Below, piece by piece: positions 6,746 through 49,542 of a stretch of DNA of 64,000 nt. The notes below the pieces were generated by a model that had not been told where the DNA came from, did no database searches, and saw only the letters and a program-made list of their open reading frames with translations. The DNA lies in assembly GCA_041483675.1 (NCBI GenBank), contig JBGPGE010000003.1:22502-86501 (forward strand). The letters are read 5' to 3'. The position numbers and the translations under genes are program-made. The DNA comes from Candidatus Binatia bacterium. Lineage in GTDB: Bacteria; Desulfobacterota; Binatia; UBA9968. Every line of letters starts with the position of its first letter. The first letter of the stretch is position 1.

Positions 6746-6754
6746 TCGGTCGTC

Positions 6755-12479: not shown

Positions 12480-12535
12480 GGCATGATGTCTTTTCCGAGC
12501 AGAGAGAATAGACTCACGGAAAGGACGGGCGCCGG

Positions 12536-13261: not shown

Positions 13262-13322
13262 CCGCCGTGCCGGGCGTTAAAGAAACAGACGCCGTCTCAC
13301 CTTCGCACGCTCCACTTGTGGT

Positions 13323-14477: not shown

Positions 14478-15327
14478 CCATCTCTGTCTGCGATTGGGCG
14501 ACTGCTCGCTGTGGATCTCGCGGGAAGCGTACGACAGCGCGGCCGCCATCGAGCTTTTGGCCGATCCGGACCGGCTCTTCTCCGAGCCCCGCGCCGAGGT
14601 CGTCAAAGATCAAAAAAAAATCAAGGTTGCTCGAATCTCGGGGGGCATAGCGGGGAGCGCCGCAAATGTTTATCTCAAGCGCTACAACGCATTTTCCTGG
14701 CGCTACCGGCTATTTTCCATACTCGGACCCTCCGCCGCGCGGCGGGCATGGCGCGGCGCTTCGATCTTGATTGAGAACGGGTTCCAGACGGGCCGCCCGG
14801 TCGCCGCCGTCGAGTGCCGCTCGTGGGGGATGCTCACGAAAAGCTTCTACGTCTCGCAGGAAATTCCTTCGGCCAAGACGGTGGACGCCTGCTGGATCGA
14901 AGAACTTTCCCGCGGCCGTGGAGCCGAAGAACGGCGCCGCAGAAGAGAGTTGCTTCAAGCCTCGGCCGCGCTCTTTCGCCGTCTTCACCAGGCGCGCATC
15001 TACCATAACGATCTTAAAGACGCGAACATTCTTGTCGGTCCCGCGGATCGCTACACAGAGCAATCCTTTTTCCTCCTCGATCTCGAAGGCATCCGGCGCG
15101 TCTCTCGGCTGGGTCTCAGGCGGCGGATAAAGAACCTCGTGCAGTTGAACCGGACCCTCGGCCGCTTCGTCAGCCGGGCCGAGAAATGGCGCTGGGCCAG
15201 GGTTTATCTCGGGCCGGAGTTCCATGATCGCGCCACAAGAAGAATCTGGCTTCAGCGGATCGTCAAGGCGACCGCGCGCGCCGACGCGCACTCGATGCGC
15301 AAGCGGAACCGTGATTTGACAAAGTAG
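14461..15327 (+). CDS. Lipopolysaccharide kinase (Kdo/WaaP family), third copy
   Basis: YHNDLKDANILV catalytic loop and LLDLEG. Proposed GTG start overlaps the GT4 stop by 17 nt, so the start is uncertain. The gene contains an A9 tract at about 14612-14620. Confidence 0.65.
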   Translation: MPANPDHLCLRLGDCSLWISREAYDSAAAIELLADPDRLFSEPRAEVVKDQKKIKVARISGGIAGSAANVYLKRYNAFSWRYRLFSILGPSAARRAWRGASILIENGFQTGRPVAAVECRSWGMLTKSFYVSQEIPSAKTVDACWIEELSRGRGAEERRRRRELLQASAALFRRLHQARIYHNDLKDANILVGPADRYTEQSFFLLDLEGIRRVSRLGLRRRIKNLVQLNRTLGRFVSRAEKWRWARVYLGPEFHDRATRRIWLQRIVKATARADAHSMRKRNRDLTK

Positions 15328-15349: not shown

Positions 15350-17092
<1,743 letters not shown>

Positions 17093-17173
17093 AACGATCG
17101 GTCGCTTACGTTTCACCGCGCCGTCTGGCGCCGCCGGCTTTTGCTTACGGACTACCGGAAATAATCGAGACCC

Positions 17174-18205
17174 ATGACGACAAGCCACGTCAGCTGCATC
17201 GTCGGAATGCACCGCAGCGGGACTTCTATGGTCTCGCGGCTGCTCAATCTTTGCGGGCTCGACCTGGGGCGGCCTTACGAACTTACGGAGGCCAACAAAA
17301 ATAATCCGGTCGGTTATTTCGAGAACAAAGCCTTCAATAAGATCAACCGGGCGCTCCTGTCGCACCTAGGAAAGAGCTGGGCCAATCCGCCGGCGATCGG
17401 CGACGGATGGGAGACCGATCCGGCGTTGGCGGCGCTTGCCGAGGAGGGCCGGCGCGTGATCGAGAGCTTTGCCGGCAGCCCGCACTGGGGCTGGAAAGAC
17501 CCCAAGACCACGGTGGTCTTGCCCTTTTGGCAGCGCTTGCTTCCCGGGATGCGCTATGTCGTTTGCCTGCGCAACCCGGTGGAGGTGGCCGAGTCGCTGG
17601 CGAAGCGCAACGGCTTTCCGATCGAGCATGGCGCCTATCTGTGGCATCACTACACGCGCGCCGCGATCCGGTACACGGAAGGGCGCCGGAGGATATTTGC
17701 TTTTTACGAGGATTTTTTTACCGACGGCGCGGCGGAACTCGAGAGATTAGCGGTATTTTGCGGTTTGGGAGCGGCGGGCGATCGGAGCCATGCGTTGGAG
17801 ACGATCCTGCCCGATCTGCGTCACCATCGGGATCAAACCGCTCGACTCTTAGACCACGCCGAAATTGCGGCCGAGCACAAACTGTTTTACCTAGGACTCC
17901 GGGCCTTGGCCGCCGTAGAGCCGACGGATGCAGACGTTGACGGGGAGAGGGAGGCCGTTGTCTCCGAGAGAGTCGCGCGGATGGAGAGTCTCTTTGCGGC
18001 TTTCGAGGACCAGCAGCCGATCGCGCGCCTCGAATCCGAACTGGCGGAAAAGGAGCAGCGGCTGCGGGAACTCCACGCCAAACTTCGACGCGTGGAAGAG
18101 GCCGTGGCGGAGAGTCGCAGAAAATGGGGTTTCAGGTTGGCGACCGGGCTCGGCAGAATTTTTCGAATGGAAAAGTCTGCCGCGGGCGCGCGGAAACGGT
18201 CATAA
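17174..18205 (+). CDS. Sulfotransferase family protein
   Basis: 5'-PSB motif GMHRSGTS near the N-terminus and 3'-PB CLRNPVEVAESL (RNP) match PAPS-dependent sulfotransferases (Stf0/NodH-like). A coiled-coil C-terminus follows. Confidence 0.75.
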   Translation: MTTSHVSCIVGMHRSGTSMVSRLLNLCGLDLGRPYELTEANKNNPVGYFENKAFNKINRALLSHLGKSWANPPAIGDGWETDPALAALAEEGRRVIESFAGSPHWGWKDPKTTVVLPFWQRLLPGMRYVVCLRNPVEVAESLAKRNGFPIEHGAYLWHHYTRAAIRYTEGRRRIFAFYEDFFTDGAAELERLAVFCGLGAAGDRSHALETILPDLRHHRDQTARLLDHAEIAAEHKLFYLGLRALAAVEPTDADVDGEREAVVSERVARMESLFAAFEDQQPIARLESELAEKEQRLRELHAKLRRVEEAVAESRRKWGFRLATGLGRIFRMEKSAAGARKRS

Positions 18206-18239
18206 CGGTTGCGCCGTCGAAAGGAGTGACCCGCTTCCG

Positions 18240-19145
18240 ATGATCAGCGAATTGAAGTGGCGCTATCTCGACAATCTCGGTCCGCTGCTGGCTCATCGGC
18301 GGGAGCGGCAGCCACTGGCCGGCGAGGCGGCGCGTGTAGTCGCCGAGTTGAATCGGAACGGCATCGCGATGACGTCGGTGGCCGCCCTGCTGCGCGATGG
18401 GTCGTTTTTTTCCTCGCTTGAGACCGCCGTCGCCGAGTTGGAGCGGCTGGCGGCGGACGAGATCGCGGCGGCGAGACAGGCCGCCAATCGCGCCGACGGC
18501 TGGAAAACCTATCTTATTGAGTTTCTCGGAAAACATCCCGTGCTCGAGCCGCAGAGCGTTTGCGCCCGTTTTGCGTTGCAGCCGGAGATCCTCAACATCG
18601 CCAATGCGTACTTCGGGATGCGCACCCGGCTCAGGACCTATAATGTCTGGCGCAACTTCGCCACGAAAATAGCGCCGCGCAACTCCCAACTCTGGCACCG
18701 CGATCCCGAGGATCGTTACGTGCTGAAACTGTTTGTGTATCTCGACGATGTGGATCGGGGCTGCGGCCCCATCGCCTACGCGGCGGGCAGCCATCCCAAG
18801 CGGGGATTGAAGCGGGCGCCGGCTTTCACGAAGACGGCTGAGGACAAGGCGAGGCGCAGCGACGACGGCCAGATGGCCGAGGTGGCGCCGCGGGACCGCT
18901 GGATCGACGGGATCGGTCCTAAAGGGACGATGGTCTTTGCGGATACGCGGGGATATCACAAGGGCGGGCAGGCGACGGAGCGCGAGCGGCTCCTGTATAT
19001 GTGCATGTTTACCTCCAGAGCCTCGAGATATCCGGAAGGCTTTACGCGTCCTGCGGGGTTTGCCGCCCCGGAGGGAATCGACCGAGAACAGATGTTCGCC
19101 CTAAGCGCCGAGGACAGGGAGCAACGTGGTTTGGAAAGGCGTTAA
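18240..19145 (+). CDS. Phytanoyl-CoA dioxygenase (PhyH)-family Fe(II)/2-oxoglutarate oxygenase
   Basis: HRDPED (H-x-D) and a later GSH...R resemble the PhyH double-stranded beta-helix facial triad. GTG start has AAAGGAG upstream. Confidence 0.7.
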   Translation: MISELKWRYLDNLGPLLAHRRERQPLAGEAARVVAELNRNGIAMTSVAALLRDGSFFSSLETAVAELERLAADEIAAARQAANRADGWKTYLIEFLGKHPVLEPQSVCARFALQPEILNIANAYFGMRTRLRTYNVWRNFATKIAPRNSQLWHRDPEDRYVLKLFVYLDDVDRGCGPIAYAAGSHPKRGLKRAPAFTKTAEDKARRSDDGQMAEVAPRDRWIDGIGPKGTMVFADTRGYHKGGQATERERLLYMCMFTSRASRYPEGFTRPAGFAAPEGIDREQMFALSAEDREQRGLERR

Positions 19146-19162: not shown

Positions 19163-20347
19163 GTGAGACCTCTAAACATTCTGATCGCCAACAGCTGGCG
19201 CTACAACATCGGCGGGGTCGAGTTGTGGGCGGACCGATTGGCCGGTGGTTTGAGAGCGCGCGGTCACAACGTCGCTTTCGTCGTGCGCCGGGACTCCAAG
19301 CTCTATCCGAAGTTCATCGCCGACGGGGCCGAGGTTCATGCGTTTCCCATGCGCGGCGACATGGATCCGCGCACGGTGATTCCGTTAGCCCGGCTCATTC
19401 GGCGAAGGCGCGTGGACGTCATTCTCACCCTGAGAGAACGGGACTTTCGGTTGGCCGGGCTGGCGGCCAAGCTCGCCTGTCGAGGCCGTGTCGTTGCCCG
19501 GATGCGGGCGGTCTCGGGTCACGACCAGAGTCAACACAGGCGCGATTTACAGTTTTATCGGCAGCGGTGGAGGTACAATTATTTCGCCGCGAAAGTAATT
19601 ACGAATTCCACAAGAGGGAAGCGGGATTTAGTCGAGGGCGGGTGGCTTACGGCGGATCGGGTGGAGGTGCTGCGCAACGGCGTCGACCTAAACGCTTTCA
19701 ATCCGAAAAAAATCCTCGGCGGGCCGCTTAGAAAAGAGTACGGCATCCCCGCCGATGCGCCGGTCGTGTCTCTTATCGCCCGGTTAAGCGAAGGAAAAGG
19801 GCAGCTTCTGTTGGCCGAAGCTGCGTGTCGACTGCGGGAGCGCCACCCAAACGCGTTTTATTTATTGGTCGGAGGGCCGACGCGGCAAAAGTTTCTTCAG
19901 ACGCTAAGCGAGTTTATCCAGGAGACCGGCCTGCGGGAACGTTTGATTCTCACCGGTTTTCGGACCGACGTAGCGCGCATTCTCGCCGACACCGACGTGT
20001 TGGTGCTTCCCTCCGTCGCCGAGGGGCTGCCCAACGTGGTTCTGGAAGCGATGGCCATGCGCCGTCCGGTAATTGCCACGAATGTTGGCGGCACGGAAGA
20101 GGTTGTTGAGGATGGGGTGAACGGTTTTTTGCTCCCCGTTCCCGTGTCGGTCCCGCTGCTCTGCGAGAAACTTGATTTTCTCCTGGCGCATCCCGCGGAG
20201 CGGGAGCGAATGGGGAGAATGGGACGGGCCACGGTAGAGCGCGAGTTCGATCTTCGACGGAGCGTGGAGCGCTACGAAGAACTTTTCTATCGTGTCTTAG
20301 GCGAGCCTTGCGCGGGAGCGCGCCCGCCGGGCCTTTCCGATCGTTAA
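19163..20347 (+). CDS. Glycosyltransferase family 4
   Basis: GFRTDVARILADTDVLVLPSVAEGLPNVVLEAMAMRRPVIATNVGGTEEVV is the canonical GT4 C-terminal motif. Start is set at GTG and is uncertain. Confidence 0.8.
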   Translation: MRPLNILIANSWRYNIGGVELWADRLAGGLRARGHNVAFVVRRDSKLYPKFIADGAEVHAFPMRGDMDPRTVIPLARLIRRRRVDVILTLRERDFRLAGLAAKLACRGRVVARMRAVSGHDQSQHRRDLQFYRQRWRYNYFAAKVITNSTRGKRDLVEGGWLTADRVEVLRNGVDLNAFNPKKILGGPLRKEYGIPADAPVVSLIARLSEGKGQLLLAEAACRLRERHPNAFYLLVGGPTRQKFLQTLSEFIQETGLRERLILTGFRTDVARILADTDVLVLPSVAEGLPNVVLEAMAMRRPVIATNVGGTEEVVEDGVNGFLLPVPVSVPLLCEKLDFLLAHPAERERMGRMGRATVEREFDLRRSVERYEELFYRVLGEPCAGARPPGLSDR

Positions 20348-20364
20348 CTCGGAGGAGAAGATCC

Positions 20365-21102
20365 ATGGAGATTCTCGCCGTCATTCCCGCGCGAGGCGGT
20401 TCGAAGTCGGTGCCGCGGAAAAATATCCGGCCGCTTGCGGGCAGACCGCTGATCGCCTGGATCATCGGCGAAGCGAAAACATCCAAGCACATCACCCGCG
20501 CGATCGTGTCGACGGACGACCCGGAGATCGCCGCCGTGGCCAAAGCGCACGGCGCGGAAGTCCCGTTCATGCGGCCGGCGGAGCTGGCAGGGGATCTCTC
20601 GACCGACGTGGAGTTCCTGCTGCACGCGCTGGACCGGCTGAAGCGCGAAGAAAATTACGAGCCGGAGATCGTTCTCCGCCTCCCGCCGACCGCGCCTCTT
20701 TGCACGGCGGCGCGGATCGACGAGGGAATTCAGAAGCTTCTCGACACGCCGGAGGCCGACGCGGTTCGGCCGGTCGTCGAAGCCTCCAAGCATCCCTACA
20801 AAATGTGGAAGATCTCGGCCGATGGACGCTGGCTCGAGCCTTTCCTGGCGTCGGCGATCACCGGGTTCGCCGCGCCGCACGATCTGCCGCGGCAGCTCTT
20901 CCCGAAAGTCTACACGCAGACGGGGGCGATGGACGTGATCCGGCTCCGCACGCTGCGCGACTTGAAATCGACTTCGGGGAAAAAGCTCGCCTATTTTTTT
21001 ATGGAGCCTGAGGAAGCGATCAACATCGACCATGAGATGGATTTCGCGATGGCCGAATTCTTCATGCAGCGCCGTCTGCGGTCGCAGGCCGGCGGGAAAT
21101 AG
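20365..21102 (+). CDS. neuA: Acylneuraminate (nonulosonic acid) cytidylyltransferase, CMP-sugar synthetase
   Basis: ILAVIPARGGSKSVPRKNIRPLAGRPLIAW is the CMP-NeuAc synthetase/CTP-transferase-3 signature. GGAGGAG RBS. Confidence 0.8.
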   Translation: MEILAVIPARGGSKSVPRKNIRPLAGRPLIAWIIGEAKTSKHITRAIVSTDDPEIAAVAKAHGAEVPFMRPAELAGDLSTDVEFLLHALDRLKREENYEPEIVLRLPPTAPLCTAARIDEGIQKLLDTPEADAVRPVVEASKHPYKMWKISADGRWLEPFLASAITGFAAPHDLPRQLFPKVYTQTGAMDVIRLRTLRDLKSTSGKKLAYFFMEPEEAINIDHEMDFAMAEFFMQRRLRSQAGGK

Positions 21103-21193
21103 CCGTCCGGCATGGGCGCAAACCTTGCTACGGGGGCCGTTTAGGGTTAAAATCAACCAATTTTCGTCCGACAAAAGCAGCGGAGGTGCCAAG

Positions 21194-22753
21194 TTGCCGG
21201 AGGGCAAGGAATTCGATTTTAACGGCCTTTTTATCTTCGAGGTCGCGAACAATCACCAGGGAAGCGTGGCGCACGGTCACCGGATCGTCCGGGAGATCGG
21301 GCGCGTGGCGAAGGCCGCGGGGGTGCGCGGGGCCGTCAAGCTCCAACTACGCGATCTCGACACCTTTATCCATCCGGGCTACCGGGAGAGCCGCGAGAAC
21401 AAGCATATCCAGCGGTTCTTGTCGACGCGGCTTACGGAAGCTCAGTTCGGCGATCTGGTCGGCGAGATCAGGAACGAAGGGTTGATCCCGCTCTGCACGC
21501 CGTTCGATGAGCCGTCCGTGGATGTCATGATGCGGATGGGGCTCGATTTGATCAAGGTCGGCAGCTGCTCCGCGCAGGATTGGCCGCTGCTCGAGCGCGT
21601 GGCCGACGCGGGCAAACCGGTGATCTGCTCCACCGGCGGGCTGAGTGTCAAAGAGATCGACAACATCGTGAGCTTCTTCCAGCATCGCGGTATTCACTTC
21701 GCGTTGATGCATTGCGTGGCGATCTATCCTTCGCCCAACAGCAAGCTCTGCCTGTCGCAGATTCAAGTGCTGAAAAACCGCTATCCAGGCGTTCCGATCG
21801 GCTTTTCGACGCACGAAGAGCCGTCGAATCTGACCGCGGTCGGCGTCGCCTATGCGATGGGCGCGCGGCTCTTTGAGAAACACGTGGGCGTTCCCGACGC
21901 CGATGTCCAGCTAAACGCCTATTCCGCGACGCCGGAGCAGGTCGCGGCCTGGCTGGCCGCTTACGGCGAGGCCGTAGCGGCCTGCGGCGGGAACGGCGAG
22001 CGGCCGATCGAGGAGGCGGAGATCAAGGATCTGCGCTCTCTTACCCGCGGCGCCTACGCGAAGCGGCCGCTGAAAGCGGGCGTGGCGATGAAGCGCGGCG
22101 ACGTGTTTTTCGCGATGCCGCTGTTGGAAGGCCAGCTCACGAGCGGCCATTGGAATGAGGGACTGGTTGCCGATCGCGACTACGCGACGGGAGAGGCGCT
22201 CGCCGCCGCTTTGCGCTCCGGCCGCCCGGCCCGAAAAGAGCTGATCTATTCCAGCATCCACCAGCTCCGGGGGATGCTGAACGCGGCCCGTATTCCGCTC
22301 GGACACGATTTTTCGGTCGAGCTCTCTCATCACTACGGCCTGGAGCGGTTTCACGAGATCGGCTGCACGCTGATCGAGTGCATCAATCGCGACTACGCCA
22401 AGAAGCTGGTCGTCCAGACGCCGGGGCAGTGGAATCCGGTGCATTACCACAAAAAAAAGGACGAAACGTTTCAGGTGCTTCAGGGGGTGTTGGAGGTCGA
22501 GCTGGAGGGCAGAAAAAAAGTCCTCGAGCCGGGCGACGCGCTGTGGATTCCGCCCGGAGTCTGGCATGGGTTCGGCACCAAAACCGGCGTGATCTTCGAG
22601 GAGATTTCCACCCGCAGCTACAACGACGATTCGTTTTACGTCGATCGGGAGATCGCCGCGATGCCCCGGGAAGAGCGCAAGACATGGCTGCACAATTGGG
22701 GGCGGCACCAGTTTGATCCCCTGAGCGAGGAAGAAACGGAAGAGCGGAAGTAG
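21194..22753 (+). CDS. neuB: N-acetylneuraminate (nonulosonate) synthase fused to a C-terminal cupin domain
   Basis: FIFEVANNHQGS, LKVGSCS and ICSTGG are NeuB TIM-barrel motifs, followed by a SAF-like segment. The extra ~120 aa (VHYHKKKDETFQVLQGVLEVELEGRKKVLEPGDALWIPPGVWHGFG) is a cupin_2 barrel. TTG start has GGAGG 7 nt upstream. Confidence 0.8.
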   Translation: MPEGKEFDFNGLFIFEVANNHQGSVAHGHRIVREIGRVAKAAGVRGAVKLQLRDLDTFIHPGYRESRENKHIQRFLSTRLTEAQFGDLVGEIRNEGLIPLCTPFDEPSVDVMMRMGLDLIKVGSCSAQDWPLLERVADAGKPVICSTGGLSVKEIDNIVSFFQHRGIHFALMHCVAIYPSPNSKLCLSQIQVLKNRYPGVPIGFSTHEEPSNLTAVGVAYAMGARLFEKHVGVPDADVQLNAYSATPEQVAAWLAAYGEAVAACGGNGERPIEEAEIKDLRSLTRGAYAKRPLKAGVAMKRGDVFFAMPLLEGQLTSGHWNEGLVADRDYATGEALAAALRSGRPARKELIYSSIHQLRGMLNAARIPLGHDFSVELSHHYGLERFHEIGCTLIECINRDYAKKLVVQTPGQWNPVHYHKKKDETFQVLQGVLEVELEGRKKVLEPGDALWIPPGVWHGFGTKTGVIFEEISTRSYNDDSFYVDREIAAMPREERKTWLHNWGRHQFDPLSEEETEERK

Positions 22754-22776
22754 CTCCTCTCCGAAAATCCGCCTCC

Positions 22777-23427
22777 ATGATCAAAGCGGTTGTCCTCGAT
22801 TTCGACGGAGTGATCGTCGACTCCAACAAGCTCAAGCGTGAGAGCTTCTTCGCCCTATTTCCCCGGGACGAGGAAACCGCCGCCGTCGTCGGCGCGATCG
22901 TGTCGCAGAAGTGGCGGCGGTCGCGCTTTGAAATCCTGCGCGCGGCGATCGAGCGATTGAACCTGGCGGGCGAGGTAGAGATCGAGAGCCTGGTTCAGGC
23001 CTACGCTCGCCGTTACAACGAGAAGGTCCAGCGCGGCATCGCCGAGATGGGGCTGATCCCGGGCGTCGGCGAACGGCTGGCGGCGCTGTCGCAAAGGTAT
23101 CTCCTCTATGTCAATTCCGGGACCTACGAGCCGGCGCTGCGCGAGAGCGTCGAGCGGTTGAATATCTTGCAGCGGTTCCTGGCCGCGTACGGCGGTCCCG
23201 CGGGAAAAGTTGAAAATCTGCAAAAGATATTGGCTCATCGGTCGATCCGGGCGGAGGAGTCGGTCTTCGTCGGCGACGGGGCGGAGGACCGCGACGCGGC
23301 CCGCGAATGCGGCTGTCGGTTCGTCGGCGTAGCGAATGAATTCAACGGCTGGGGCGAGGAGGAGTTCCCGGTAGTCGGCGGCCTCGGCGCGGCTATCCCT
23401 ATCATCGACGGCTTTAATTCAATGTGA
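22777..23427 (+). CDS. HAD-superfamily hydrolase (subfamily IA phosphatase-like)
   Basis: Motif I VVLDFDGVIVDS. Motif IV VGDGAEDRDAA. Confidence 0.75.
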   Translation: MIKAVVLDFDGVIVDSNKLKRESFFALFPRDEETAAVVGAIVSQKWRRSRFEILRAAIERLNLAGEVEIESLVQAYARRYNEKVQRGIAEMGLIPGVGERLAALSQRYLLYVNSGTYEPALRESVERLNILQRFLAAYGGPAGKVENLQKILAHRSIRAEESVFVGDGAEDRDAARECGCRFVGVANEFNGWGEEEFPVVGGLGAAIPIIDGFNSM

Positions 23428-23430
23428 ACC

Positions 23431-23446
23431 CCGCCTCTTGAGGCGG
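23431..23446 (+). terminator. GC-rich hairpin (CCGCCT-CTTG-AGGCGG) immediately after the HAD gene stop
   Basis: Perfect 6-bp inverted repeat 4 nt after the TGA. No U-tract follows, so intrinsic-terminator function is uncertain. Confidence 0.3.
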
Positions 23447-23554
23447 GCACAAAGCCGATGGGGTTTCCAATGGGGAGAAGTGGCAGCTCTCCCCTTTGGT
23501 CGAACGCGGGGATTCAAGCCCCGTGTTCGATATAACTTGATTTGCAGAATCCTG

Positions 23555-24646
23555 GTGAAAACGATCAAAGTCAAAATAATCGGCGCAGGCTCGATCGGTA
23601 ATCATCTCGCCCACGCTTGCCGGCGGATGGATTGGGAGGTCGTGGTGGTGGACCGCGACCGCGCCGCGCTCGACCGGATGCGAAACGATCTCTACCCGGG
23701 CCGCTATGGCGGCTGGGACGAGCGCATCGAGCTTTGCGCCTCGGCGGACGAGCCGCGCGGCGGGTTCGATATCATTTGTATCGGCACTCCGCCCGACGCG
23801 CGCATGGGCTTGGCGGTCAAGGCGTTGGAAGAAATGCCGCGGATCTTACAGCTGGAAAAACCGCTCTGCTGCCCGACGTTGGAGGGGCTGGATCTCTTTT
23901 TGTCGCGCTACCGCGCGCAGCGGGAGACGATTGGGGTGGTCGGTTACGATCACGCGGTCTCGCAGGCGGTCTCCGCCGTGCTTGAGCGGCTGGATTCCGG
24001 TTGGGCCGGCGAAATGGCGACGGTTGATGTTGAATTCCGCGAGCATTGGAACGGCATTTTCAAAGCGCATCCGTGGCTTGCCGGTCCGCAGGATTCCTAT
24101 CTCGGATTTTGGTCGCGCGGCGGCGGCGCCGGCGGCGAGCACTCTCATGCGCTCCATCTCTGGCAGCTTCTCGCCCGGCGCGGCGGGCTGGGGAGTTGGC
24201 GCCAGGTCAGCGCCGTCATGGCGATGGAGCAGGCGGGAGGCGCGGATTACGATTCGTTATGCGCATTTTCATTTGTGACCGACCGGGGAAGGGTGGGACG
24301 GGTGGTCCAGGACGTCGTGACCTCGCCGCCGCGCAAATGGGCGCGGCTTCAGGGGTCGGAGGGCTTTATCGAGTGGATTTGCAACGGCGACGCCAAAGGG
24401 GATATGGTTCGCTATGGACGCGCAGGCAAGGATCCGGTCGAAGAGGTCTACCCGAAGACGCGGCCCGATGATTTTTATCGCGAGATGCAGCACCTGCGGG
24501 AGCTGCTCGAAAACCGGATTTCGCCGGAGCAGTCGCCGATCTCGCTGGAGAGCGGGGTGGCGGTGATGCGGGTCCTGGCGACGGCGCACCGGCATCGCAA
24601 CGGGACGGCGGAAATCCCATCGGCTCCGAACACTTTTCCCCGATAG
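23555..24646 (+). CDS. Gfo/Idh/MocA-family NAD(P)-dependent oxidoreductase
   Basis: IKVKIIGAGSIGNHLA Rossmann motif and EKP consensus (LQLEKPL). GTG start. The upstream in-frame region lacks an ATG. Confidence 0.7.
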   Translation: MKTIKVKIIGAGSIGNHLAHACRRMDWEVVVVDRDRAALDRMRNDLYPGRYGGWDERIELCASADEPRGGFDIICIGTPPDARMGLAVKALEEMPRILQLEKPLCCPTLEGLDLFLSRYRAQRETIGVVGYDHAVSQAVSAVLERLDSGWAGEMATVDVEFREHWNGIFKAHPWLAGPQDSYLGFWSRGGGAGGEHSHALHLWQLLARRGGLGSWRQVSAVMAMEQAGGADYDSLCAFSFVTDRGRVGRVVQDVVTSPPRKWARLQGSEGFIEWICNGDAKGDMVRYGRAGKDPVEEVYPKTRPDDFYREMQHLRELLENRISPEQSPISLESGVAVMRVLATAHRHRNGTAEIPSAPNTFPR

Positions 24647-24700
24647 ACGTTTCGATTCGTAGTTCGATTCGTGGTTTAAGGATAACGAAGGGCTCAAGAG

Positions 24701-26158
24701 ATGACGTTGTTTATCTACCTTCGGTTGGGCAATTCCCACCGTAACATCCTGCGTTCGGAGCTTTTTCCAACGCTCAGGTCCAATCGCAACTTGCGACTGG
24801 TCATTATCTCTCCGCTGGGCGATGAAGGCTATCTCAAGAGCGAGTTTCAAAGCGAGAACGTGTTCGTCGAGCGGCTGCCGAAAACCCGTCCCGACGGGCT
24901 GGAGCGCCAGCTCAAGAAGCTGAAAAACTATATCTGGTTGTCGCACAACCCGCCGGAGACGTTTCGCATCCGCCGGGAAAGGACGCGGCGGGAGGGGCTC
25001 TCCGGACGTCTACGGGTCGTTTGGGAAGAGAGCGTCGCGGCATTCATGAACGGCTTGGGGATTACCGAGAAAACCGTCGACGGATGGGAACTCGCGCTGT
25101 TTCGCCGCCGCAAGATCGCGCGCCTGTTCGACCGTTATCGGCCCGATGCGGTGTTGTTTACCAAGCTCCATTCCACCAATATCCACGTGGTGAAGGAGGC
25201 CAAGAAACGCGACATCGAAGCCGTCTGTTTCGTGGAGGGGTGGGACAATCCGACGAGCAAGGGGCCGTTTTCGGTCGAGCCGGACCATGTCCTCGTCTGG
25301 AACGAGTGCATGAAGCGGGAAATCGTCGAGCACCACCGCTTTCCGGCGGAGAAAATCGACGTCGTGGGGGTGCCGCAGTTCGATTTTTATTATGACCGCT
25401 CGAAGTTTTGCGGCCGGGAAGAGTTTTTTCGTAAACACGGATTCGATCCGACCCGGAAGCTGATCGCCTACTGCGTCGCGGGCGGCACGATCGCGCGGAG
25501 CGAGCCGCTGATCATCGACATGCTCTATCGGGCGATGATGGAGGGGCGGGTGAAATCGCCGGCGCAGCTTCTGGTCAGGCTCCATCCCACGACCCACGGA
25601 GACTATCTGAAAGAATTCGACCGGTTCAAGGGGCTGCCGCACTTGATCCTGCAGCCCGCGGGGCGGGTGGCGAAGATTCAGGACGGCTGGGATCCCTCCC
25701 AGCAGGACATGATGCGCTTGGCGGAAACCATGATCCATTCGAACGTCGTGATCAACGTCGCTTCGACGATTTCGCTCGACGCGATCGCTTTCGACACCCC
25801 GGTGGTCGGTATCGCGTTCGAAGGGGACGGGCCGCACGATTATCTGGATTCTTACCGCCGTTACTACGACTATACGCACTTCAACCCGGTGTTGCGCAAC
25901 GGCGGGCTTCGGCTCGCCGGCAGCCTGGCGGAATTGATCGACCACGTGAATCGGTATCTCGACGATCCGTCGCTGGATGCGGAGGGGAGGGCGCGGGTGA
26001 GGAAAGAACAGATGTACGCGCTGGACGGGAAGTCGGCAAGGCGAGCGGGCGAAGCGATTCTCAAGGCGCTCGGGCTCAGACCGGGCGTCGCCGAGGCTCA
26101 GCTTCGGGGGGATTTGGCGATTGCGCCAGCGAAACTTGAGTCCCCTTCGGAGGCGTAA
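24701..26158 (+). CDS. GT-B fold TagF/KpsC-like glycosyl- or glycerophospho-transferase (putative capsule/nonulosonate transferase)
   Basis: LVRLHPTTHGDY (HP motif) and VINVASTISLDAIAFDTPVVGIAFEG resemble the CDP-glycerol glycerophosphotransferase and KpsC/KpsS capsule families. The assignment is by motif only. Confidence 0.5.
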   Translation: MTLFIYLRLGNSHRNILRSELFPTLRSNRNLRLVIISPLGDEGYLKSEFQSENVFVERLPKTRPDGLERQLKKLKNYIWLSHNPPETFRIRRERTRREGLSGRLRVVWEESVAAFMNGLGITEKTVDGWELALFRRRKIARLFDRYRPDAVLFTKLHSTNIHVVKEAKKRDIEAVCFVEGWDNPTSKGPFSVEPDHVLVWNECMKREIVEHHRFPAEKIDVVGVPQFDFYYDRSKFCGREEFFRKHGFDPTRKLIAYCVAGGTIARSEPLIIDMLYRAMMEGRVKSPAQLLVRLHPTTHGDYLKEFDRFKGLPHLILQPAGRVAKIQDGWDPSQQDMMRLAETMIHSNVVINVASTISLDAIAFDTPVVGIAFEGDGPHDYLDSYRRYYDYTHFNPVLRNGGLRLAGSLAELIDHVNRYLDDPSLDAEGRARVRKEQMYALDGKSARRAGEAILKALGLRPGVAEAQLRGDLAIAPAKLESPSEA

Positions 26159-26165
26159 TATTTCT

Positions 26166-27083
26166 GTGAATGCGAGAGAATATTGTGTATCCGTGGCTAT
26201 CGCCACCAAAGGGCGCATCGAGGGGCTGGACCGGCTCTTGCGCACGCTTTCGGAGGACGAGGCCCGCGAGGAGATTCCTCATGAGATTTTAGTCGGCAAC
26301 AACGCGCCCGACGAGGCGGCCGCTCGCGCGGTCGAGGAGACGGTGCGAAAGTATTCGGGGCGGCCGAATTCCGCCCTGCGCTCGTCCCGCGAGCCGGTGC
26401 CGGGCAAATGCCTCACTTTGAATCGTCTCCTGCCGATCGCCAAAGGGGAGATCCTTGCCTACCTGGACGACGACGTTGAAGTCGCGCCGGGCTGGCTCAG
26501 GGCGACGCGCGATTTTTTCGTTCAGCATCCCTACGAGGTGATGCAGGGCCGTATTCTTTTTCCGCCGGCGATCAAGGACGATCCCGAGTTCCTGAAAGCC
26601 TGGAACCGCTATCGCACGATCATGTACGTGAATTTCGGGGACGAGGTGAAGCAAATCCGCGACCTCACGGGCGCCAATATGGCGGTCAGGCGGGAGGTTT
26701 TCGACAAGGTCGGCCTGTTCGACGAGCGCATCGGTCCGGGACAGTCCGGTACCTCGATGGATGTAGAATTCGGCCAGCGGGTCATGCGCATGGGACTCCG
26801 CATCGGCTACGCGCCGGCCTCGATCGTCTACCACGACATCGACTGGTCGCGGTTTACCGAGGAATATTTCCGTTCGCGTCACGAACAGCAGGGCCGGAGC
26901 CGTCTGATCTACAAGAACAGCTCGATGGCGGCGATTGTCGCAGATCTCACTCGTTCGCTGCTTTCGCTCGGGTGGTATTCCCTGTTTTACAACGAGCGTA
27001 AGCGATACCGATCTCTGGGAAGAACCTATCATTATCGAGCCATGCTGAAGGAAAAGATGGGACGCCTATGCGAGTCTGCCTGA
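26166..27083 (+). CDS. Glycosyltransferase family 2
   Basis: VSVAIATKGRIEGLDRLLRTL and a LDDDVEV DXD-type motif. GTG start. Confidence 0.75.
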   Translation: MNAREYCVSVAIATKGRIEGLDRLLRTLSEDEAREEIPHEILVGNNAPDEAAARAVEETVRKYSGRPNSALRSSREPVPGKCLTLNRLLPIAKGEILAYLDDDVEVAPGWLRATRDFFVQHPYEVMQGRILFPPAIKDDPEFLKAWNRYRTIMYVNFGDEVKQIRDLTGANMAVRREVFDKVGLFDERIGPGQSGTSMDVEFGQRVMRMGLRIGYAPASIVYHDIDWSRFTEEYFRSRHEQQGRSRLIYKNSSMAAIVADLTRSLLSLGWYSLFYNERKRYRSLGRTYHYRAMLKEKMGRLCESA

Positions 27084-28540
27084 TTTTCCCGAAATCCACA
27101 TTTTTAGAAGACCCGATGGTGTTTCCACCTCTGGGTCTCTGGTGGCTCTGGTCGGTGCTGGAAAAGGCCGGCCATGAAGTCGCGTTCATCGACATGTCGG
27201 AGCACAACCTCGATACGAGCGAGGTTCCGCGCGGCTTTGACGCCTATCTGGTTTCGGGGACCTCGCCCCAAGGCCGGGAGATAAGAAAGCTCGGAGTAGA
27301 GTGTCGCAACCGTGGAGTGCCGGCGATCCTGGGCGGCCCCCATGCGACCAACTATCCTCGCGACTGTCGAAAGTATTTTCCGCTGGTTGTCCGTAGGGAA
27401 GGCGAGAGCGCCGTGCTGAAGGCCCTGGAGCGCGTGCAGCGCGGCGCGGCGCTCGAGTATCTCTCGGACGAGGATCTGGTGAGAGTGCGAATGGGCGAAA
27501 AGCCCGCTTTGGAAAAATGCCAGCGCGGCGTGATCGAGGACGCCTTCATCGGCGACCTGGGCACGGTCCCGATACCGAATCGCACTTACGCCGGACACTA
27601 TCATTATTATCTTGCGGACGAGAACGGCGTCAAGCGGCGGGGAACCAGCATGTTTACCTCGCGCGGCTGTCCGAAGCGCTGCGATTTTTGCGACTCGCCC
27701 AACCTGTGGTCGCGCGTCGTTCGCAATACGCCGGTTACCAGGGTCGCCGAGGAATTCGCTCAGATCAAAGCATTGGGGCTGGACGCCATTCAGTTCTACG
27801 ACGACATCCTGCCGATCAATCCGCGCCGGGTCGCCGAGATCTGCGGCCATCTCAAGCGCTACGGGTTTATCTGGAGATGTTTCTGCCGCGTCGATATCAT
27901 CACGAAGCACGGCGGCAAGGACTACCTTAAGTTCATGTACGACCATGGGCTGCGGGAGGTCCTGATCGGCGCCGAGTCCGGCTCGCAGACGATCCTCAAC
28001 AACATTCACAAAGAGACGACGGTCGAGCAGAACGCCAATGTCCTCCAGTGGTGCGACGAGGTCGGGATACGGTGCAAGCTGTCTTTCATCGTCGGACTCC
28101 CGGGCGAAACGCGAGAGACCCTGGAGGAGACGCGAAAGTTTCTCCGTACGCACCTGATCCAGGCGTCGCGCAGGATGCCGCACAAAGTCGATCTCTGCTC
28201 GTATATCCCGATGGCGGGAACACCGATCTACAAAGCCGTGATGCGCCGGCAGGACGACAGCCTGGATGGGGGAGAGGAGTTCGACAGCTACGGCTATCAT
28301 CCGGGGGAAAACGTCTCCGATTTCGATCTGCGGTGGAATGTCGATGCCGCGCTGATGGATAATTTTTTCTACGAACCGGACAGCCTCGACGGCCATTTGG
28401 CCCCCGACGAGATTTTCTACAAAGGAAGGGCCGGCGCCGTGCGCCAGATCGTCTCCACTTCGAGTATAACCCGGGAAGAGCTGCAAAAGGCCCGCGATGA
28501 GATGGAAGCCGAGGTGCGGGCTGCGGGAATCTCATACTGA
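27068..28540 (+). CDS. B12-binding domain-containing radical SAM protein (class B radical SAM)
   Basis: N-terminal cobalamin-binding Rossmann-like region (LIFPKS...GHEVAFIDMS...LVSGTS) and a CxxxCxxC cluster SRGCPKRCDFCDS. A downstream GAESGSQTIL-type motif is also present. Confidence 0.8.
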   Translation: MRVCLIFPKSTFLEDPMVFPPLGLWWLWSVLEKAGHEVAFIDMSEHNLDTSEVPRGFDAYLVSGTSPQGREIRKLGVECRNRGVPAILGGPHATNYPRDCRKYFPLVVRREGESAVLKALERVQRGAALEYLSDEDLVRVRMGEKPALEKCQRGVIEDAFIGDLGTVPIPNRTYAGHYHYYLADENGVKRRGTSMFTSRGCPKRCDFCDSPNLWSRVVRNTPVTRVAEEFAQIKALGLDAIQFYDDILPINPRRVAEICGHLKRYGFIWRCFCRVDIITKHGGKDYLKFMYDHGLREVLIGAESGSQTILNNIHKETTVEQNANVLQWCDEVGIRCKLSFIVGLPGETRETLEETRKFLRTHLIQASRRMPHKVDLCSYIPMAGTPIYKAVMRRQDDSLDGGEEFDSYGYHPGENVSDFDLRWNVDAALMDNFFYEPDSLDGHLAPDEIFYKGRAGAVRQIVSTSSITREELQKARDEMEAEVRAAGISY

Positions 28541-28623: not shown

Positions 28624-29523
28624 ATGAAGGAACAGAGGATCAGCGTTGTCGTCCCGACGCGAAATCGCCGCGACAGCCTCCAGAGACTGCTTTCCAGCTT
28701 ACGGCAAACGCGCGGTCTGGCAAAAATCGCGCTGGAGGTGATCGTCGTGGACAACGGCTCTACGGACGGCACGGCGGACTACCTCAAGAAAGCGAGCGCG
28801 GAATGGCCGCTGCTCCGAGGAATATTCGAAGAGAGGGCGGGCAAAAATTTCGCGCTCAATAAAGGCATCCGCGAGGCTAGGGGTGAGATCCTTTGTCTGA
28901 TGGACGACGATATCGTGCTGGATACGGGATGGCTGGAGGCGCTGGTCGAAGATTACGCGACGACCCGATACGATGCGCTGCAACCTCGAGTCCTTCCGGG
29001 CACCGATCCGGAGGGAAAGCCGGCGGACCTGAGCCGCCTTCACGAGTACAACATTCCGATCGTGGACTACGGCGACTCGATCAGGGATCGGCGGGGCCTC
29101 ACCGGCGTCATCATGTCGTTCAGGCGACGCGTCATCGAGAAAGCCGGGTCGTTTGATGAAAGGCTTCCGGCGCTGGGATATCACGGAGACACGGATCTTT
29201 CCCGACGCATTCGTGGAGCAGGCTTTTCCATCGGCTACACGCCGCACGTCGTCGCGTACCACGAGCTAAACCCGAATCGCTATGGGATCCGTTATGCCCG
29301 CCTGTTCCAATATCGAAAAGGCGTGAGCCGCAGTCTCTATGCGCGGGATTCCATCTGGTTCAACGTTATCCCGAACCTGCTGGCGAATATCCCGCGTTAT
29401 GTCTATTATCGCGCCGCGGGGAATGCGCGGAAGATCTACAAAACAGAGATGCGCATCATGAAATACTGGGGTTACCTCGCGGGAAGACTGCAGCGCGCGA
29501 TCGGCAAAGAGCCATGGAAATAG
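28624..29523 (+). CDS. Glycosyltransferase family 2
   Basis: ISVVVPTRNRRDSLQRLLSSL, VIVVDNGSTDGT, and MDDD (DXD). Confidence 0.85.
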   Translation: MKEQRISVVVPTRNRRDSLQRLLSSLRQTRGLAKIALEVIVVDNGSTDGTADYLKKASAEWPLLRGIFEERAGKNFALNKGIREARGEILCLMDDDIVLDTGWLEALVEDYATTRYDALQPRVLPGTDPEGKPADLSRLHEYNIPIVDYGDSIRDRRGLTGVIMSFRRRVIEKAGSFDERLPALGYHGDTDLSRRIRGAGFSIGYTPHVVAYHELNPNRYGIRYARLFQYRKGVSRSLYARDSIWFNVIPNLLANIPRYVYYRAAGNARKIYKTEMRIMKYWGYLAGRLQRAIGKEPWK

Positions 29524-30422
29524 CCTCGCAGAACAAAAGTCCCGCCGTTTCCGTCGTCGTCGCCACATTTAATCGAGCGCAACTTCTTCCCAAGACGATC
29601 GACAGTCTGCTCCGCCAGAGCTTCAAGGATTTCGAGCTGATCGTGGTGGACGACGGCTCGACGGACTCTACCGCCGATCTGCTTAAAGGCTACGGCGACC
29701 GCGTGCGATTTTTCCGCCAGGAAAATCGCGGGCCATCGGCCGCGCGCAATCTCGGCGTGCGCCAGGCGCGGGGGGGGTGGATCGCGTTCCAGGACTCCGA
29801 TGACGTGAGCGCGCCGGACCATCTCCAGTCGCTCTTCGACTTCGCCCAAATGCGCCTCGACCACGCGCTGATTTTCGCCAACGGCGGTTATCTCGCCGGC
29901 CCGCAGCACGACCGGGAGACGATCATTCCGGCGGCCAAGTCGCGACGGCTCGCCGCGCACGGCGTGTCGCTTAAGGACCTTTTCGACAAGAGTATTTTTC
30001 GCCTGCAGGCGTCGCTCATTCGAAAATCCACGCTGGAGGCTGTTGGGGGCTTCGACGAGAGCATTCGCGTCGGCGAGGATCTCGATCTGGCGATGAGGAT
30101 TTGGCTCAGCTACCCCGTGGCCTATTTGGATAAGGTCGTGTTTTTTTATCGCCGCCACGAAGGCAACCTCGTGGGCGACAGCGAGCTACGGCTGACGGAC
30201 AACATCCGGGTGATCGAGAAGCTGGCGCGCGAGTTCCCGCGGGCACGCGAGATCCTCGGTCCGGCCAGGATTGCGCGGCGGACCGCCTATCGCTATTATC
30301 GGCTCGCTAAGAGCTGCTGGAAACGCGGCGAGCGGGAGAAGGCGCGGCGGGCGATCCGGCAGGCGGTTTCGCTGCGGCCCCTGGCCCTGAAGTACCGCTA
30401 TTACCGGTCGGTGTGGGTCTAA
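29514..30422 (+). CDS. Glycosyltransferase family 2 (contains a G8 homopolymer)
   Basis: VSVVVATFNRAQLL, LIVVDDGSTDST, and QDSDD. A G8 tract at about 29770-29777 encodes R-G-G-W. Confidence 0.85.
   Translation: MEIASQNKSPAVSVVVATFNRAQLLPKTIDSLLRQSFKDFELIVVDDGSTDSTADLLKGYGDRVRFFRQENRGPSAARNLGVRQARGGWIAFQDSDDVSAPDHLQSLFDFAQMRLDHALIFANGGYLAGPQHDRETIIPAAKSRRLAAHGVSLKDLFDKSIFRLQASLIRKSTLEAVGGFDESIRVGEDLDLAMRIWLSYPVAYLDKVVFFYRRHEGNLVGDSELRLTDNIRVIEKLAREFPRAREILGPARIARRTAYRYYRLAKSCWKRGEREKARRAIRQAVSLRPLALKYRYYRSVWV
29770..29777 (+). repeat. Poly-G (G8) tract inside GT2 coding sequence
   Basis: Seen directly in the sequence: GCGCGGGGGGGGTGG. Confidence 0.8.
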
Positions 30423-30427
30423 TTTCC

Positions 30428-31216
30428 ATGTCCCCTGCGAAGCTGGAAATCTCCGCGATCGTCGTCTGCTTCAACGAAGAGGCAAACATCGGGCGCTGTC
30501 TCGAAAGCCTCAAATGGTGCGATGAGATCGTCGTGGTCGATTCCTTCAGCACCGACCGGACGGTCGAGATCTGCCGCCGCTACACCGACCGGGTGATTCA
30601 ACGGCCCTGGGCGGGCTATCGCGATCAGAAAGCTTTCGCTCACTCGCAGGCGTCGAAGGAATGGGTCTTTCTGGTCGATTCCGATGAGCAGGTCTCCCCT
30701 GAATTGAAGGAAGAGATTTCTTCTGCTTTGGCTCATGCCGATGGCGGTGTCGATGCGTTCGCCGCGCCCCGTCTGGTTCATTATCTCGGCCGATGGTGGT
30801 GGAACGGCGGCTGGTATCCGGACTACGATATTAGGATTTTCCGGCGCGAGCGGGCGCGCTGGGGCGGGAACGATCCGCATGAAAAAATTCTGGTCGATGG
30901 CGCGGTGCGGCGGCTGAAACATCCGTTGTTCCACTATTCGTATCGCGACGTGGCCGACCATTGGCAACGCATCAATCGCTTCACCACCATCTCGTCGGCT
31001 GAGTTGCAGGCCGCCGGAAAACGGTGGAAGTGGATCGACAATCTGCTGCGGCCTCCGTTCCGCTTCTTGCGCTCCTATGTGTTGAAACGCGGCTTTCTCG
31101 AAGGCTTTCCCGGATTTTTCGTCTGCGCCACGGCGGCGATTTACGTATTTCTCAAATATGCTAAGCTCAGGGAACTCGAGCTGAAGCCGCGGGAAAGCGG
31201 GCACAGTGGATCGTGA
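30428..31216 (+). CDS. Glycosyltransferase family 2, WaaE/KdtX-like LPS core glycosyltransferase
   Basis: ISAIVVCFNEEANIGRCLESL, VVVDSFSTD, LVDSDE, plus the C-terminal membrane-associating tail typical of the WaaE-like family. Confidence 0.8.
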   Translation: MSPAKLEISAIVVCFNEEANIGRCLESLKWCDEIVVVDSFSTDRTVEICRRYTDRVIQRPWAGYRDQKAFAHSQASKEWVFLVDSDEQVSPELKEEISSALAHADGGVDAFAAPRLVHYLGRWWWNGGWYPDYDIRIFRRERARWGGNDPHEKILVDGAVRRLKHPLFHYSYRDVADHWQRINRFTTISSAELQAAGKRWKWIDNLLRPPFRFLRSYVLKRGFLEGFPGFFVCATAAIYVFLKYAKLRELELKPRESGHSGS

Positions 31217-32312
31217 ACGGAGGCCTCTCCGAATCCTTCACATCGATCCCGAAAGGGCGTGGGGAGGCGGGGAGCGGCAGGTGATGGGGCTGTTGAGCCA
31301 CCTGTCCCGCTGGGGACATGAGAATCATCTCCTTTGCCATCCGGATTCGCCGCTTGAGCAGGCGGCGCGGCGAATCGAGGTTCGGACATCGCCGATCGGA
31401 ATCCGCAACGAGATCGACCTGCGGGCCGTCGTTCCGTTGAGGCGGCTGCTTAGGGTCGGGGGATACGACATTCTCCATTTTCATACCAAGCGGGCGCATG
31501 CTTTGTCGTTCTGGCTTGGGCGGCCGGCTGGAGGATTGCGGCGCGTGGTCACGCGCCGCATGGATTATCCGATGCGGCGCAACTGGTACGAGCGCGCTCT
31601 TTATAACCGGAAAGTGGACGGCGTGATCGCCATATCGGAGAAGATCGCGGCGCTGTTGATCGAGGGCGGCGTCGCCAGAAAAAAGATCCGCGTGATCTAC
31701 AGCGGCGTCGATATCGCTTTCTTCGACAATCGGAGCGAGTCAACGGAACGAGATAGCGCGCCGGTGGTCGGCATGGTGGCGGCGCTGGAAGAGAGAAAGG
31801 GCCATCGTTTTCTGTTCGAGGCGGCGGCGGAGCTGAAGCGGGGGGGGGATCGGTTGCATTACAAAATCGCCGGCGACGGGCCTGAGCTGGAAAAGTTGCG
31901 TGCGCTGGCGGCAGCGCTGGGCCTGCAAGCGGAGATCGAGTTCGTGGGGTTCGTTTCCGACGTGGCGGCGTTCTTAGCTTCCATCGACCTTTTTGTCCTG
32001 CCGTCGCTGTTCGAAGGGCTGGGCGTCGCGGCGCTGGAGGCGATGGCGGCGGGAAAGCCGGTCATCGCGACAGAGGTCGGCGGCTTGAGCGAGCTGGTCG
32101 AAGATCGCCGCACGGGTCTGCTGGTTCCACCGGGGGATGCTCATGCTCTGGCGCGGGCGATTCACGAGCTGGTCTCGCAGGACGACCTGATGCGCGAGCT
32201 GGGCGAGAACGGCAGGCGGCGGGTCGCCGAGCGGTTTACGATGGAGCGGATGGCGCGGCAAAACGAGGCCTATTATTACGAGTTGCTTGCGGCGCCGGGA
32301 ACGGCCCGGTGA
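31206..32312 (+). CDS. Glycosyltransferase family 4 (contains a G9 homopolymer)
   Basis: LFVLPSLFEGLGVAALEAMAAGKPVIATEVGGLSELV is the GT4 motif. A G9 tract at about 31840-31848 encodes K-R-G-G-D. Confidence 0.8.
   Translation: MDRERRPLRILHIDPERAWGGGERQVMGLLSHLSRWGHENHLLCHPDSPLEQAARRIEVRTSPIGIRNEIDLRAVVPLRRLLRVGGYDILHFHTKRAHALSFWLGRPAGGLRRVVTRRMDYPMRRNWYERALYNRKVDGVIAISEKIAALLIEGGVARKKIRVIYSGVDIAFFDNRSESTERDSAPVVGMVAALEERKGHRFLFEAAAELKRGGDRLHYKIAGDGPELEKLRALAAALGLQAEIEFVGFVSDVAAFLASIDLFVLPSLFEGLGVAALEAMAAGKPVIATEVGGLSELVEDRRTGLLVPPGDAHALARAIHELVSQDDLMRELGENGRRRVAERFTMERMARQNEAYYYELLAAPGTAR
31840..31848 (+). repeat. Poly-G (G9) tract inside GT4 coding sequence
   Basis: Seen directly: AAGCGGGGGGGGGATCGG. 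Confidence 0.8.
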
Positions 32313-45736: not shown

Positions 45737-45779
45737 CCCGTTCGACTATACTCAGGGTCATGGTGAGGAAGATCGAACC

Positions 45780-49520: not shown

Positions 49521-49542
49521 GTTCCGCCTCATAACTAAAAAC

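Follow-up and report, generated by a model that had tools for sequence, protein, structure and literature searches.

A glycosyltransferase-linked family of B12-domain radical SAM proteins in bacterial glycan loci and in uncultivated phages

Methylases dominate class B radical S-adenosylmethionine (SAM) enzymes, and the class I layout, in which an N-terminal five-strand Rossmann B12 domain is joined to a barrel, is common to the proven cobalamin binders (PMC12931638). GenK, GenD1/GntE, Fms7 and MoeK5 tailor the sugars of assembled glycosides, MoeK5 acting on a lipid-linked phosphoglycolipid (PMC12931638, PMC9204698, PMC5461906). HpnJ, OxsB and BchE are class B members that are not methylases (PMC9204698); a ring contraction is the reaction proposed for HpnJ, with bacteriohopanetetrol-glucosamine as substrate, and the one shown for OxsB, with a deoxyribose. 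AprD4 requires the reductase AprD3 (PMC5461906) and is listed in a 2026 review as not binding cobalamin, so that, as AprD4 and ArsL illustrate, membership in the B12-radical SAM network does not guarantee cobalamin binding (PMC12931638). Here we describe a gene for a B12-domain radical SAM protein in a 64,000-nucleotide stretch of a Candidatus Binatia bacterium genome (assembly GCA_041483675.1, contig JBGPGE010000003.1, positions 22,502 to 86,501 of the forward strand), which is called the window below and in which the gene occupies positions 27068..28540. To our knowledge, the sugar-acting class B radical SAM enzymes described so far come from antibiotic or hopanoid pathways, and all those known to us (GenK, GenD1, MoeK5, HpnJ and AprD4) act on assembled glycosides and not on nucleoside diphosphate (NDP)-sugars. 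In the literature searched, O-antigen, lipopolysaccharide (LPS), polysaccharide and capsule biosynthesis and phage glycosylation are all without a characterised class B radical SAM enzyme.

The window protein belongs to what is in effect a new subfamily among class B radical SAM enzymes, one firmly tied to glycan assembly. It is very probably a functional member of the class B clade that tailors a carbohydrate, is co-transcribed with glycosyltransferases (GTs), and acts on a sugar attached by a GT and not on a nonulosonate. Its exact reaction is a more tentative matter: the leading candidate, given somewhat less than an even chance, is that of a cobalamin-dependent sugar C-methyltransferase working on a growing or assembled glycan, a reading in which the binding of cobalamin, the choice of a sugar as substrate and the transfer of a methyl group are all inferred. 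The gene and the parts of its product are the following.

27068..28540, + strand: B12-domain radical SAM gene; open reading frame (ORF) with an ATG start, 490 aa (Pfam, identical proteins, AlphaFold2 model)
27068..27442, + strand: N-terminal Rossmann-type B12-binding-like domain, aa 1-125 (Pfam, conservation, AlphaFold2 strands)
27632..28162, + strand: radical SAM partial TIM barrel, aa 189-365 (Pfam 197-359, AprD4 barrel alignment, conservation)
27668..27691, + strand: radical SAM [4Fe-4S] motif C201-PKR-C205-DF-C208 (sequence, conservation)
28163..28540, + strand: family-specific C-terminal region, aa 366-490 (conservation and gap analysis)

Pfam matches PF02310 (B12-binding) at residues 18-116 with 41.3 bits against a gathering cutoff of 32.1 (E=1.6e-10) and PF04055 (Radical_SAM) at residues 197-359 with 66.4 bits against a cutoff of 29.5, and the cluster motif GCPKRCDFC reads as C201-x3-C205-x2-C208 (CxxxCxxC). 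Together with the ORF itself and the flanking matches to family 2 GTs (GT2), these results confirm the original prediction, made from the DNA letters, of a class B radical SAM gene with a CxxxCxxC cluster seated between GT2 genes. The accompanying label "cobalamin-dependent" holds for the architecture of B12 domain and barrel; for cobalamin use it is a presumption, the best solved match, AprD4, being a non-binder.

Gene calls on four independent contigs, that of the metagenome-assembled genome (MAG) GCA_041490805.1 among them, give the identical protein, and same-length (490-aa) homologues at 74-80% identity are numerous, which indicates that the gene is real and under selection. A 460-aa antisense ORF (27104..28486, - strand; GC ~60%) covers nearly the whole gene and is an ordinary high-GC shadow ORF with no sign of being a gene. 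The ATG overlaps the stop codon of the upstream GT2 gene (TGA 27081-27083) by 16 nt and is preceded by a purine-rich stretch, GGAAAAGATGGGA, and this arrangement suggests that the two genes are probably coupled in translation. A scan of the + strand found no convincing terminator interrupting the run of GT2, radical SAM and GT genes.

The AlphaFold2 model of the protein (predicted local distance difference test, pLDDT, 87; predicted template modelling score, pTM, 0.87) comprises a five-strand Rossmann domain, then the barrel, then the C-terminal region, with the Rossmann strands predicted at residues 2-7, 37-42, 59-63, 86-89 and 106-109. The three cluster cysteines are invariant in 40 aligned family members and at least 95% conserved in 138, a level also reached in the 138 by P21-L22-G23-L24, S63, T65, Q68, G89-G90 and a GE motif (numbered G112/E113 in the 40-sequence alignment and E111 in the 138-sequence alignment). 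In the model, these N-terminal residues sit at or just past the C-terminal ends of β1, β3, β4 and β5. They make up a family fingerprint, PPLGL / SGTSPQ / GGPHAT / EGE, whose columns coincide on alignment with the PPLGL, TxTP, GGPHxT and GEGE of nine mainstream class B reference proteins, for which the matches to BchE, HpnJ, ApyD and HpnR extend through both domains. The original prediction had raised the absence of a B12-binding motif on alignment as a point against itself; with the motif set present in this comparison, the point does not hold. Relative to the MetH fingerprint, which we take to be DxHxxG...SxL...GG, the SxL-like element and the GG recur in the family at the same spacing, and the DxH is replaced. 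Replacement of DxH is usual in base-off/His-off class B enzymes (PMC12931638). The family profile also aligns into the B12 domains of QCMT (9ccb), CysS (9n1b), TsrM (6wte), TokK (7kdx) and 4q37. Searched alone against the Protein Data Bank (PDB), the N-terminal domain gives one borderline match, 4q37 at E=0.037, too weak to decide cobalamin binding. On alignment, the family thus has the N-terminal domain expected of class B, a putative site of cobalamin binding.

Conservation extends through the rest of the protein. Among the 138 sequences, the barrel carries conserved W269-R270-C271-x-x-R274-x-D276, G301-x-E303-S304 and G343-L344-P345-G346-E347 motifs, and the C-terminal region conserved P381, P386, D420, G453 and T464-S465-x-L467. 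Segments 394-414 and 431-445 are clade-specific inserts with low model confidence, pLDDT falling below 50 at residues 398-409 and 426-450. Only true family members align through the conserved C-terminal end.

The genomic setting ties this family to glycan assembly. Neighbour clustering over 28 bacterial and viral loci (numbered here with the prefix L) identified GT4 and GT2 families as the only recurring neighbours of the radical SAM gene, with no conserved reductase or other non-GT partner over the same loci. Glycan clusters surround radical SAM genes whose products share 79% (L141), 63% (L142), 62% (L005), 44% (L007 and L008) and 42% (L089) identity with the window protein, and these clusters hold GTs, class I methyltransferases, NDP-sugar enzymes, and Wzx/Wzy or PMT_2. 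That the association with GTs is kept over 28 bacterial and viral loci strengthens the earlier proposal of sugar tailoring in the glycan. In the window, the gene order is GT2, radical SAM, GT2, GT2, GT2, GT4, PfkB, and the GT genes in this order are:

26121..27083, + strand: upstream GT2 (PF13641/PF00535); public gene calls begin further downstream (products of 296-305 aa)
28624..29523, + strand: downstream GT2 (PF00535, 97.5 bits)
29514-30422, + strand: GT2 (Pfam)
30413-31216, + strand: GT2 (Pfam)
31206-32312, + strand: GT4 (Pfam)

Locus L141 represents the same chromosomal site as the window, with downstream PfkB, YicC, Gmk and RelA genes shared between them. By tblastn, the four GT2 genes and the GT4 gene all have orthologues there, at 46-69% identity, beside the 79% radical SAM protein, which is therefore better conserved than the GTs conserved with it. 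A 53% orthologue of the upstream GT2 sits elsewhere in L141, and a 65% orthologue of the downstream GT2 lies at L141 position 11576, directly downstream of the radical SAM gene there too. The remaining GTs (29514..32312; two GT2 and one GT4) have orthologues at 46%, 69% and 58% identity in L141 and at 89-95% in L009; they are a conserved block that travels with the radical SAM gene in close relatives.

The CMP-sugar module that precedes this run in the window behaves differently. It is whole in the 96% relative L009 and missing from the 79% relative L141, where its genes for the cytidylyltransferase, NeuB, the HAD protein and the 485-aa transferase are all absent; the module is thus a swappable cassette. 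Since L141 keeps the radical SAM gene and the GT block without the NeuB module, the radical SAM gene belongs with the GT block and not with nonulosonate synthesis; L141 thus contradicts the nonulosonate that the original prediction had offered as one possible substrate, and it is an unlikely target. Given that the known sugar-acting members use assembled glycosides, the substrate would by analogy be a sugar already transferred to a lipid-linked or growing glycan.

An exhaustive search of 1.84 billion representatives returned 347 clusters at E<=1e-30. In a set of 185,579 species genomes, there are at least about five full-length loci, those listed all coming from uncultivated MAGs; the closest among the matches listed, at 96%, is 'Deltaproteobacteria bacterium RIFCSPLOWO2_12_FULL_60_19'. 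All NCBIfam equivalogs score far below their cutoffs for the window protein, and likewise for the 40 aligned members. For the window protein, the scores in bits are 116.8 against a cutoff of 577.6 for HpnJ (TIGR03471), 110.8 against 600 for PhpK, 94 against 750 for ApyD, 81.6 against 481.35 for BchE (TIGR02026), 79.8 against 500 for AprD4 (NF033070), 77 against 360 for QCMT and 57 against 650 for HpnR, with 73.8 for Sden_1168. HpnJ is the top partial match for all 40 aligned members (best E 4.9e-40), and none of ten more distant representatives of ~470 aa that were scanned came up to an equivalog cutoff. Source annotations call the homologues 'anaerobic magnesium-protoporphyrin IX monomethyl ester cyclase' or 'YgiQ'; with equivalog scores so far under their cutoffs, the Joint Genome Institute (JGI) names 'BchE cyclase' and 'YgiQ' are over-annotations.

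Proteins P0177, P0178, P0182 and P0212 (2096-2633 aa) each contain at least one domain matching the radical SAM protein at E ~1e-39 to 1e-43 and appear to be multidomain fusions of class B radical SAM modules. On the 117-kb bacterial contig of L089, a GT2/dTDP-sugar cluster has three genes for B12-domain radical SAM proteins within a distance of 15 kb, at 2088-4133, at 14697-15215 and, for the family member, at 7001-8215; two are of a longer type (680-694 aa).

Among the closest known systems, the sugar-tailoring enzymes GenK, GenD1/GntE, Fms7 and MoeK5, which supply the working model and are compared here by description, resemble the family as B12-domain radical SAM proteins acting on sugars and encoded in GT-rich clusters. 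They belong to actinomycete antibiotic pathways, whereas the present family is found with cell-envelope glycans and in phages. The structurally characterised cobalamin binders QCMT/MgmA (9ccb), TsrM (6wte), TokK (7kdy), CysS (9n1b) and OxsB (5ul4) match the fold with template modelling (TM) scores of 0.5-0.68, but at 16-21% identity; they have other C-terminal domains, are mostly larger, and act on peptides, proteins, beta-lactams or nucleotides.

If the enzyme is a C-methyltransferase, its chemistry would be of the GenK/GenD1/MoeK5 type. The [4Fe-4S] cluster held by CxxxCxxC would reductively cleave SAM to give a 5'-deoxyadenosyl radical, which would take hydrogen from an unactivated sugar carbon. 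The resulting substrate radical would then be methylated by methylcobalamin, which the N-terminal Rossmann domain would bind in its base-off/His-off form, and the cob(I)alamin left behind would be re-methylated by a second SAM.

Methylation of the GenK/Fom3 kind, put forward in the original prediction, is kept as the best guess because methylases dominate the class, the B12 fingerprint is intact, and HpnJ falls into one cluster with the methylases Fom3 and MoeK5 in a published sequence network (PMC9204698); sequence does not separate it from the other reactions of the class, such as those of HpnJ, OxsB and BchE. Several observations weigh against it. The methylase families PhpK, QCMT and HpnR all score below cutoff for the window protein, domain scans and Rfam found no cobalamin genes or riboswitch in the 64-kb window, and many of the radical SAM contexts already contain several class I SAM methyltransferases, so that methyl groups on the glycan alone would not implicate the radical SAM enzyme. 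Among sugar-acting class members, non-methylases (HpnJ, OxsB and AprD4) are nearly as many as methylases. AprD4 (6fd2), moreover, leads the PDB matches both by sequence (E 1.6e-17 for the single sequence and 1.3e-27 for the profile) and, with the AlphaFold2 model, by fold (TM 0.68/0.73, identity ~19%). A cobalamin-dependent rearrangement without methyl transfer, in which a pyranose contracts into a five-membered carbocycle or furanose-type ring or a BchE-like oxidation or cyclisation takes place, would fit the intact fingerprint, the place of OxsB among the top fold matches and that of HpnJ as the top partial match in all 40 members. HpnJ, which takes the glucosamine of bacteriohopanetetrol to a cyclitol ether, is likewise class B and acts downstream of the GT2 HpnI on a lipid-anchored aminosugar, the same logic as GT2 followed by radical SAM here. 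The HpnJ match, however, is far below its cutoff and covers the barrel only, the family has its own conserved C-terminal region, and the window contains no hopanoid (hpn/shc) genes; since HpnJ groups with Fom3 and MoeK5, resemblance to it does not point specifically to ring contraction, and a rearrangement is unlikely. Slightly less likely still is sugar chemistry without cobalamin, in which the Rossmann domain would only bind substrate and the reaction would be an AprD4-like 1,2-diol dehydration, or an epimerisation or oxidation. AprD4 lends it some weight: this network member that does without cobalamin shares the layout of N-terminal Rossmann domain, barrel and C-terminal region, a similar size (~455 aa in AprD4) and the GLPxET and WxCxxRxD barrel motifs, and acts on the glucosamine ring of an assembled glycoside. 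Yet AprD4 and its three closest relatives carry a CxxxCxxxC cluster (GCPYPCRFYC in AprD4; also GCPHPCGYYC and GCPFACAYYC) in place of CxxxCxxC, and AprD4 has PPLDL, with Asp, where the family has the invariant G23 of PPLGL. The NF033070 match is confined to the barrel (160-360; best E among the 40 members 2.1e-29), as is the match of the family profile, which does not reach the AprD4 N-terminal domain. For an AprD3-like reductase, the only candidate is a short-chain dehydrogenase/reductase (SDR)-type cluster (c3) present in 7 of the 28 loci and not adjacent in the window, where the neighbours are GT2. Membership in the AprD4 family therefore fails on cluster motif, NF033070 score, N-terminal domain and reductase partner. 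An AprD4-family search, with the barrel segment rebuilt from the PDB alignment, gave 8 matches, all without the N-terminal domain. The W-R-C271-x-x-R-x-D motif (AprD4 'WWCETRID') was considered as a sign of AprD4-like sugar binding or of a hydrogen-donor cysteine and discarded, as the nine mainstream class B proteins carry it too and it is general to class B.

The remaining alternatives place the enzyme outside sugar chemistry. That its substrate is something other than a sugar carbon, whether through P-methylation of a phosphonate or phosphinate, or on an acyl or lipid chain or a glycosylated protein, is improbable, although the P-methyltransferases PhpK and Sden_1168 are among the better partial matches and class B enzymes also modify lipids and peptides (PMC12931638, PMC9204698). 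WaaP-like kinases, PAPS (3'-phosphoadenosine 5'-phosphosulfate) synthesis and a sulfotransferase in the cluster further suggest that the glycan carries non-sugar groups. The cluster holds no phosphoenolpyruvate (PEP) mutase or other phosphonate-synthesis gene, however, and over 28 very different loci conservation of neighbours is confined to GTs and extends to no kinase, lipid-enzyme or peptide genes. A housekeeping or mis-annotated protein (HemN-like, a BchE cyclase or YgiQ) or an inactive remnant, as the source annotation names might suggest, is effectively refuted. BchE identity is rejected on its score and on the lack of a photosynthesis context in the locus. A HemN-like assignment, which the original prediction had named as the result that would count against it, did not emerge: the window protein has no match to TIGR00538 at E<=1e-10, one of the 40 members matches marginally, and the HemN structure 1olt is a distant, barrel-only fold match. 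The catalytic motifs are invariant, the protein is better conserved than its neighbours, and glycan genes surround the radical SAM gene in every locus examined.

Identity clustering splits the 138-member family into a bacterial half, which includes the window protein, and clusters 1, 2 and 5, which account for 64 of the 138 sequences and whose members of known context all lie on viral or phage-like contigs, with the exception of L013. That locus, from a Paceibacterota MAG (JBBACM010000004.1), shares more than 25 gene clusters in the same order around the radical SAM gene with the viral L105 (IMG/VR UViG_3300014205_000049), so that the contig, binned with the candidate phyla radiation (CPR), is probably phage or prophage. 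In IMG/VR, full-length members at 32-37% identity occur on ~20 contigs that are 33-112 kb long, and the viral or phage loci analysed are:

L091/L092/L093-L097 and L110 (radical SAM at ~7001-9300 in each), also L090, L104, L116 and L126, and L101, L107 and L108: viral/phage radical SAM loci

In contigs of the SU10-capsid type, the radical SAM gene lies a few genes downstream of the major capsid gene, from which it is separated, in this order, by small genes, two GT4 genes and a methyltransferase gene; the large genes that come after it are probably structural. In another type of viral genome, aminotransferase, SDR, formyltransferase, GT2 and GT4 genes surround the radical SAM gene. The family is absent from all 50,697 deposited phage genomes searched, PHROGs has no model for it, and in BFVD only uncultured-phage 'Fe-S oxidoreductases' match. 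Taken together, the viral loci suggest phage-encoded glycosylation with a radical SAM step.

Whether bacteria and phages have in common a glycan-editing radical enzyme that installs a carbon-level change new to cell-envelope glycans is an outside chance. If so, a C-methyl-branched, ring-contracted or deoxygenated sugar would be made after glycosyl transfer in bacterial LPS-core-type glycans, and in the phage version the modification might be placed on glycans attached to the virion or, during infection, on those of the host surface. A C-methylated or rearranged sugar on a surface glycan would count as a modification of a new class, one that bears on antigenicity and on how phage receptors are recognised, and through the phage-borne half of the family radical chemistry would reach into glycosylation encoded by viruses. 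Should the enzyme prove to be one more methylase, the gain would be modest: a better annotation than 'BchE' and 'YgiQ'. Being compact, tightly conserved and GT-linked, the family offers a tractable entry point in the form of its GT2-radical SAM-GT cassette.

In the window, the radical SAM gene lies in a co-directional run of ~27 kb that resembles an LPS-core or surface-glycan locus and also contains further GT4 genes. Its other features are the following.

5312 and 8208, + strand: GT9 heptosyltransferase-like genes (library scans)
7516, 9106 and 13945, + strand: Kdo/WaaP-family kinase genes (library scans)
10158, + strand: PMT_2/ArnT-like membrane protein gene (library scans)
15374-18205, + strand: bifunctional ATP sulfurylase/adenosine 5'-phosphosulfate (APS) kinase (PAPS synthesis), with a sulfotransferase directly after
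17928-19145, + strand: ORF with a weak PhyH-like dioxygenase match
20308-26158, + strand: CMP-sugar module (cytidylyltransferase, NeuB-cupin fusion, HAD phosphatase, NAD-binding oxidoreductase, 485-aa transferase)

The two GT9 genes, three Kdo/WaaP-family kinases and PMT_2 gene (window 5312-15327) predict a heavily phosphorylated, heptose-containing core, and the genes for PAPS synthesis and the sulfotransferase, lying in this LPS-core-like cluster, predict a sulfated surface glycan. Within the CMP-sugar module, the cupin domain of the NeuB fusion is C-terminal, the 485-aa transferase is TIGR04396-like/BFO_1060-like, and the pairing of NeuB with a HAD phosphatase resembles a Kdn-type pathway, which the module may encode.

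Housekeeping genes follow the glycan run: YicC, guanylate kinase, RelA/SpoT, rpmB and UbiD. Several other genes of the window appear unrelated to the glycan cluster. Two UbiD-family decarboxylase paralogues lie in the downstream 25 kb, at 38507-39943 and 61387-62973 (both + strand). The same 25 kb also carry a phosphonate-type ABC transporter (42966-46661), a MoxR/VWA pair (47934-50700) and genes for three luciferase-like monooxygenases, at 54171-55148 (+ strand), 60159-61163 (- strand) and 62937-63974 (- strand).

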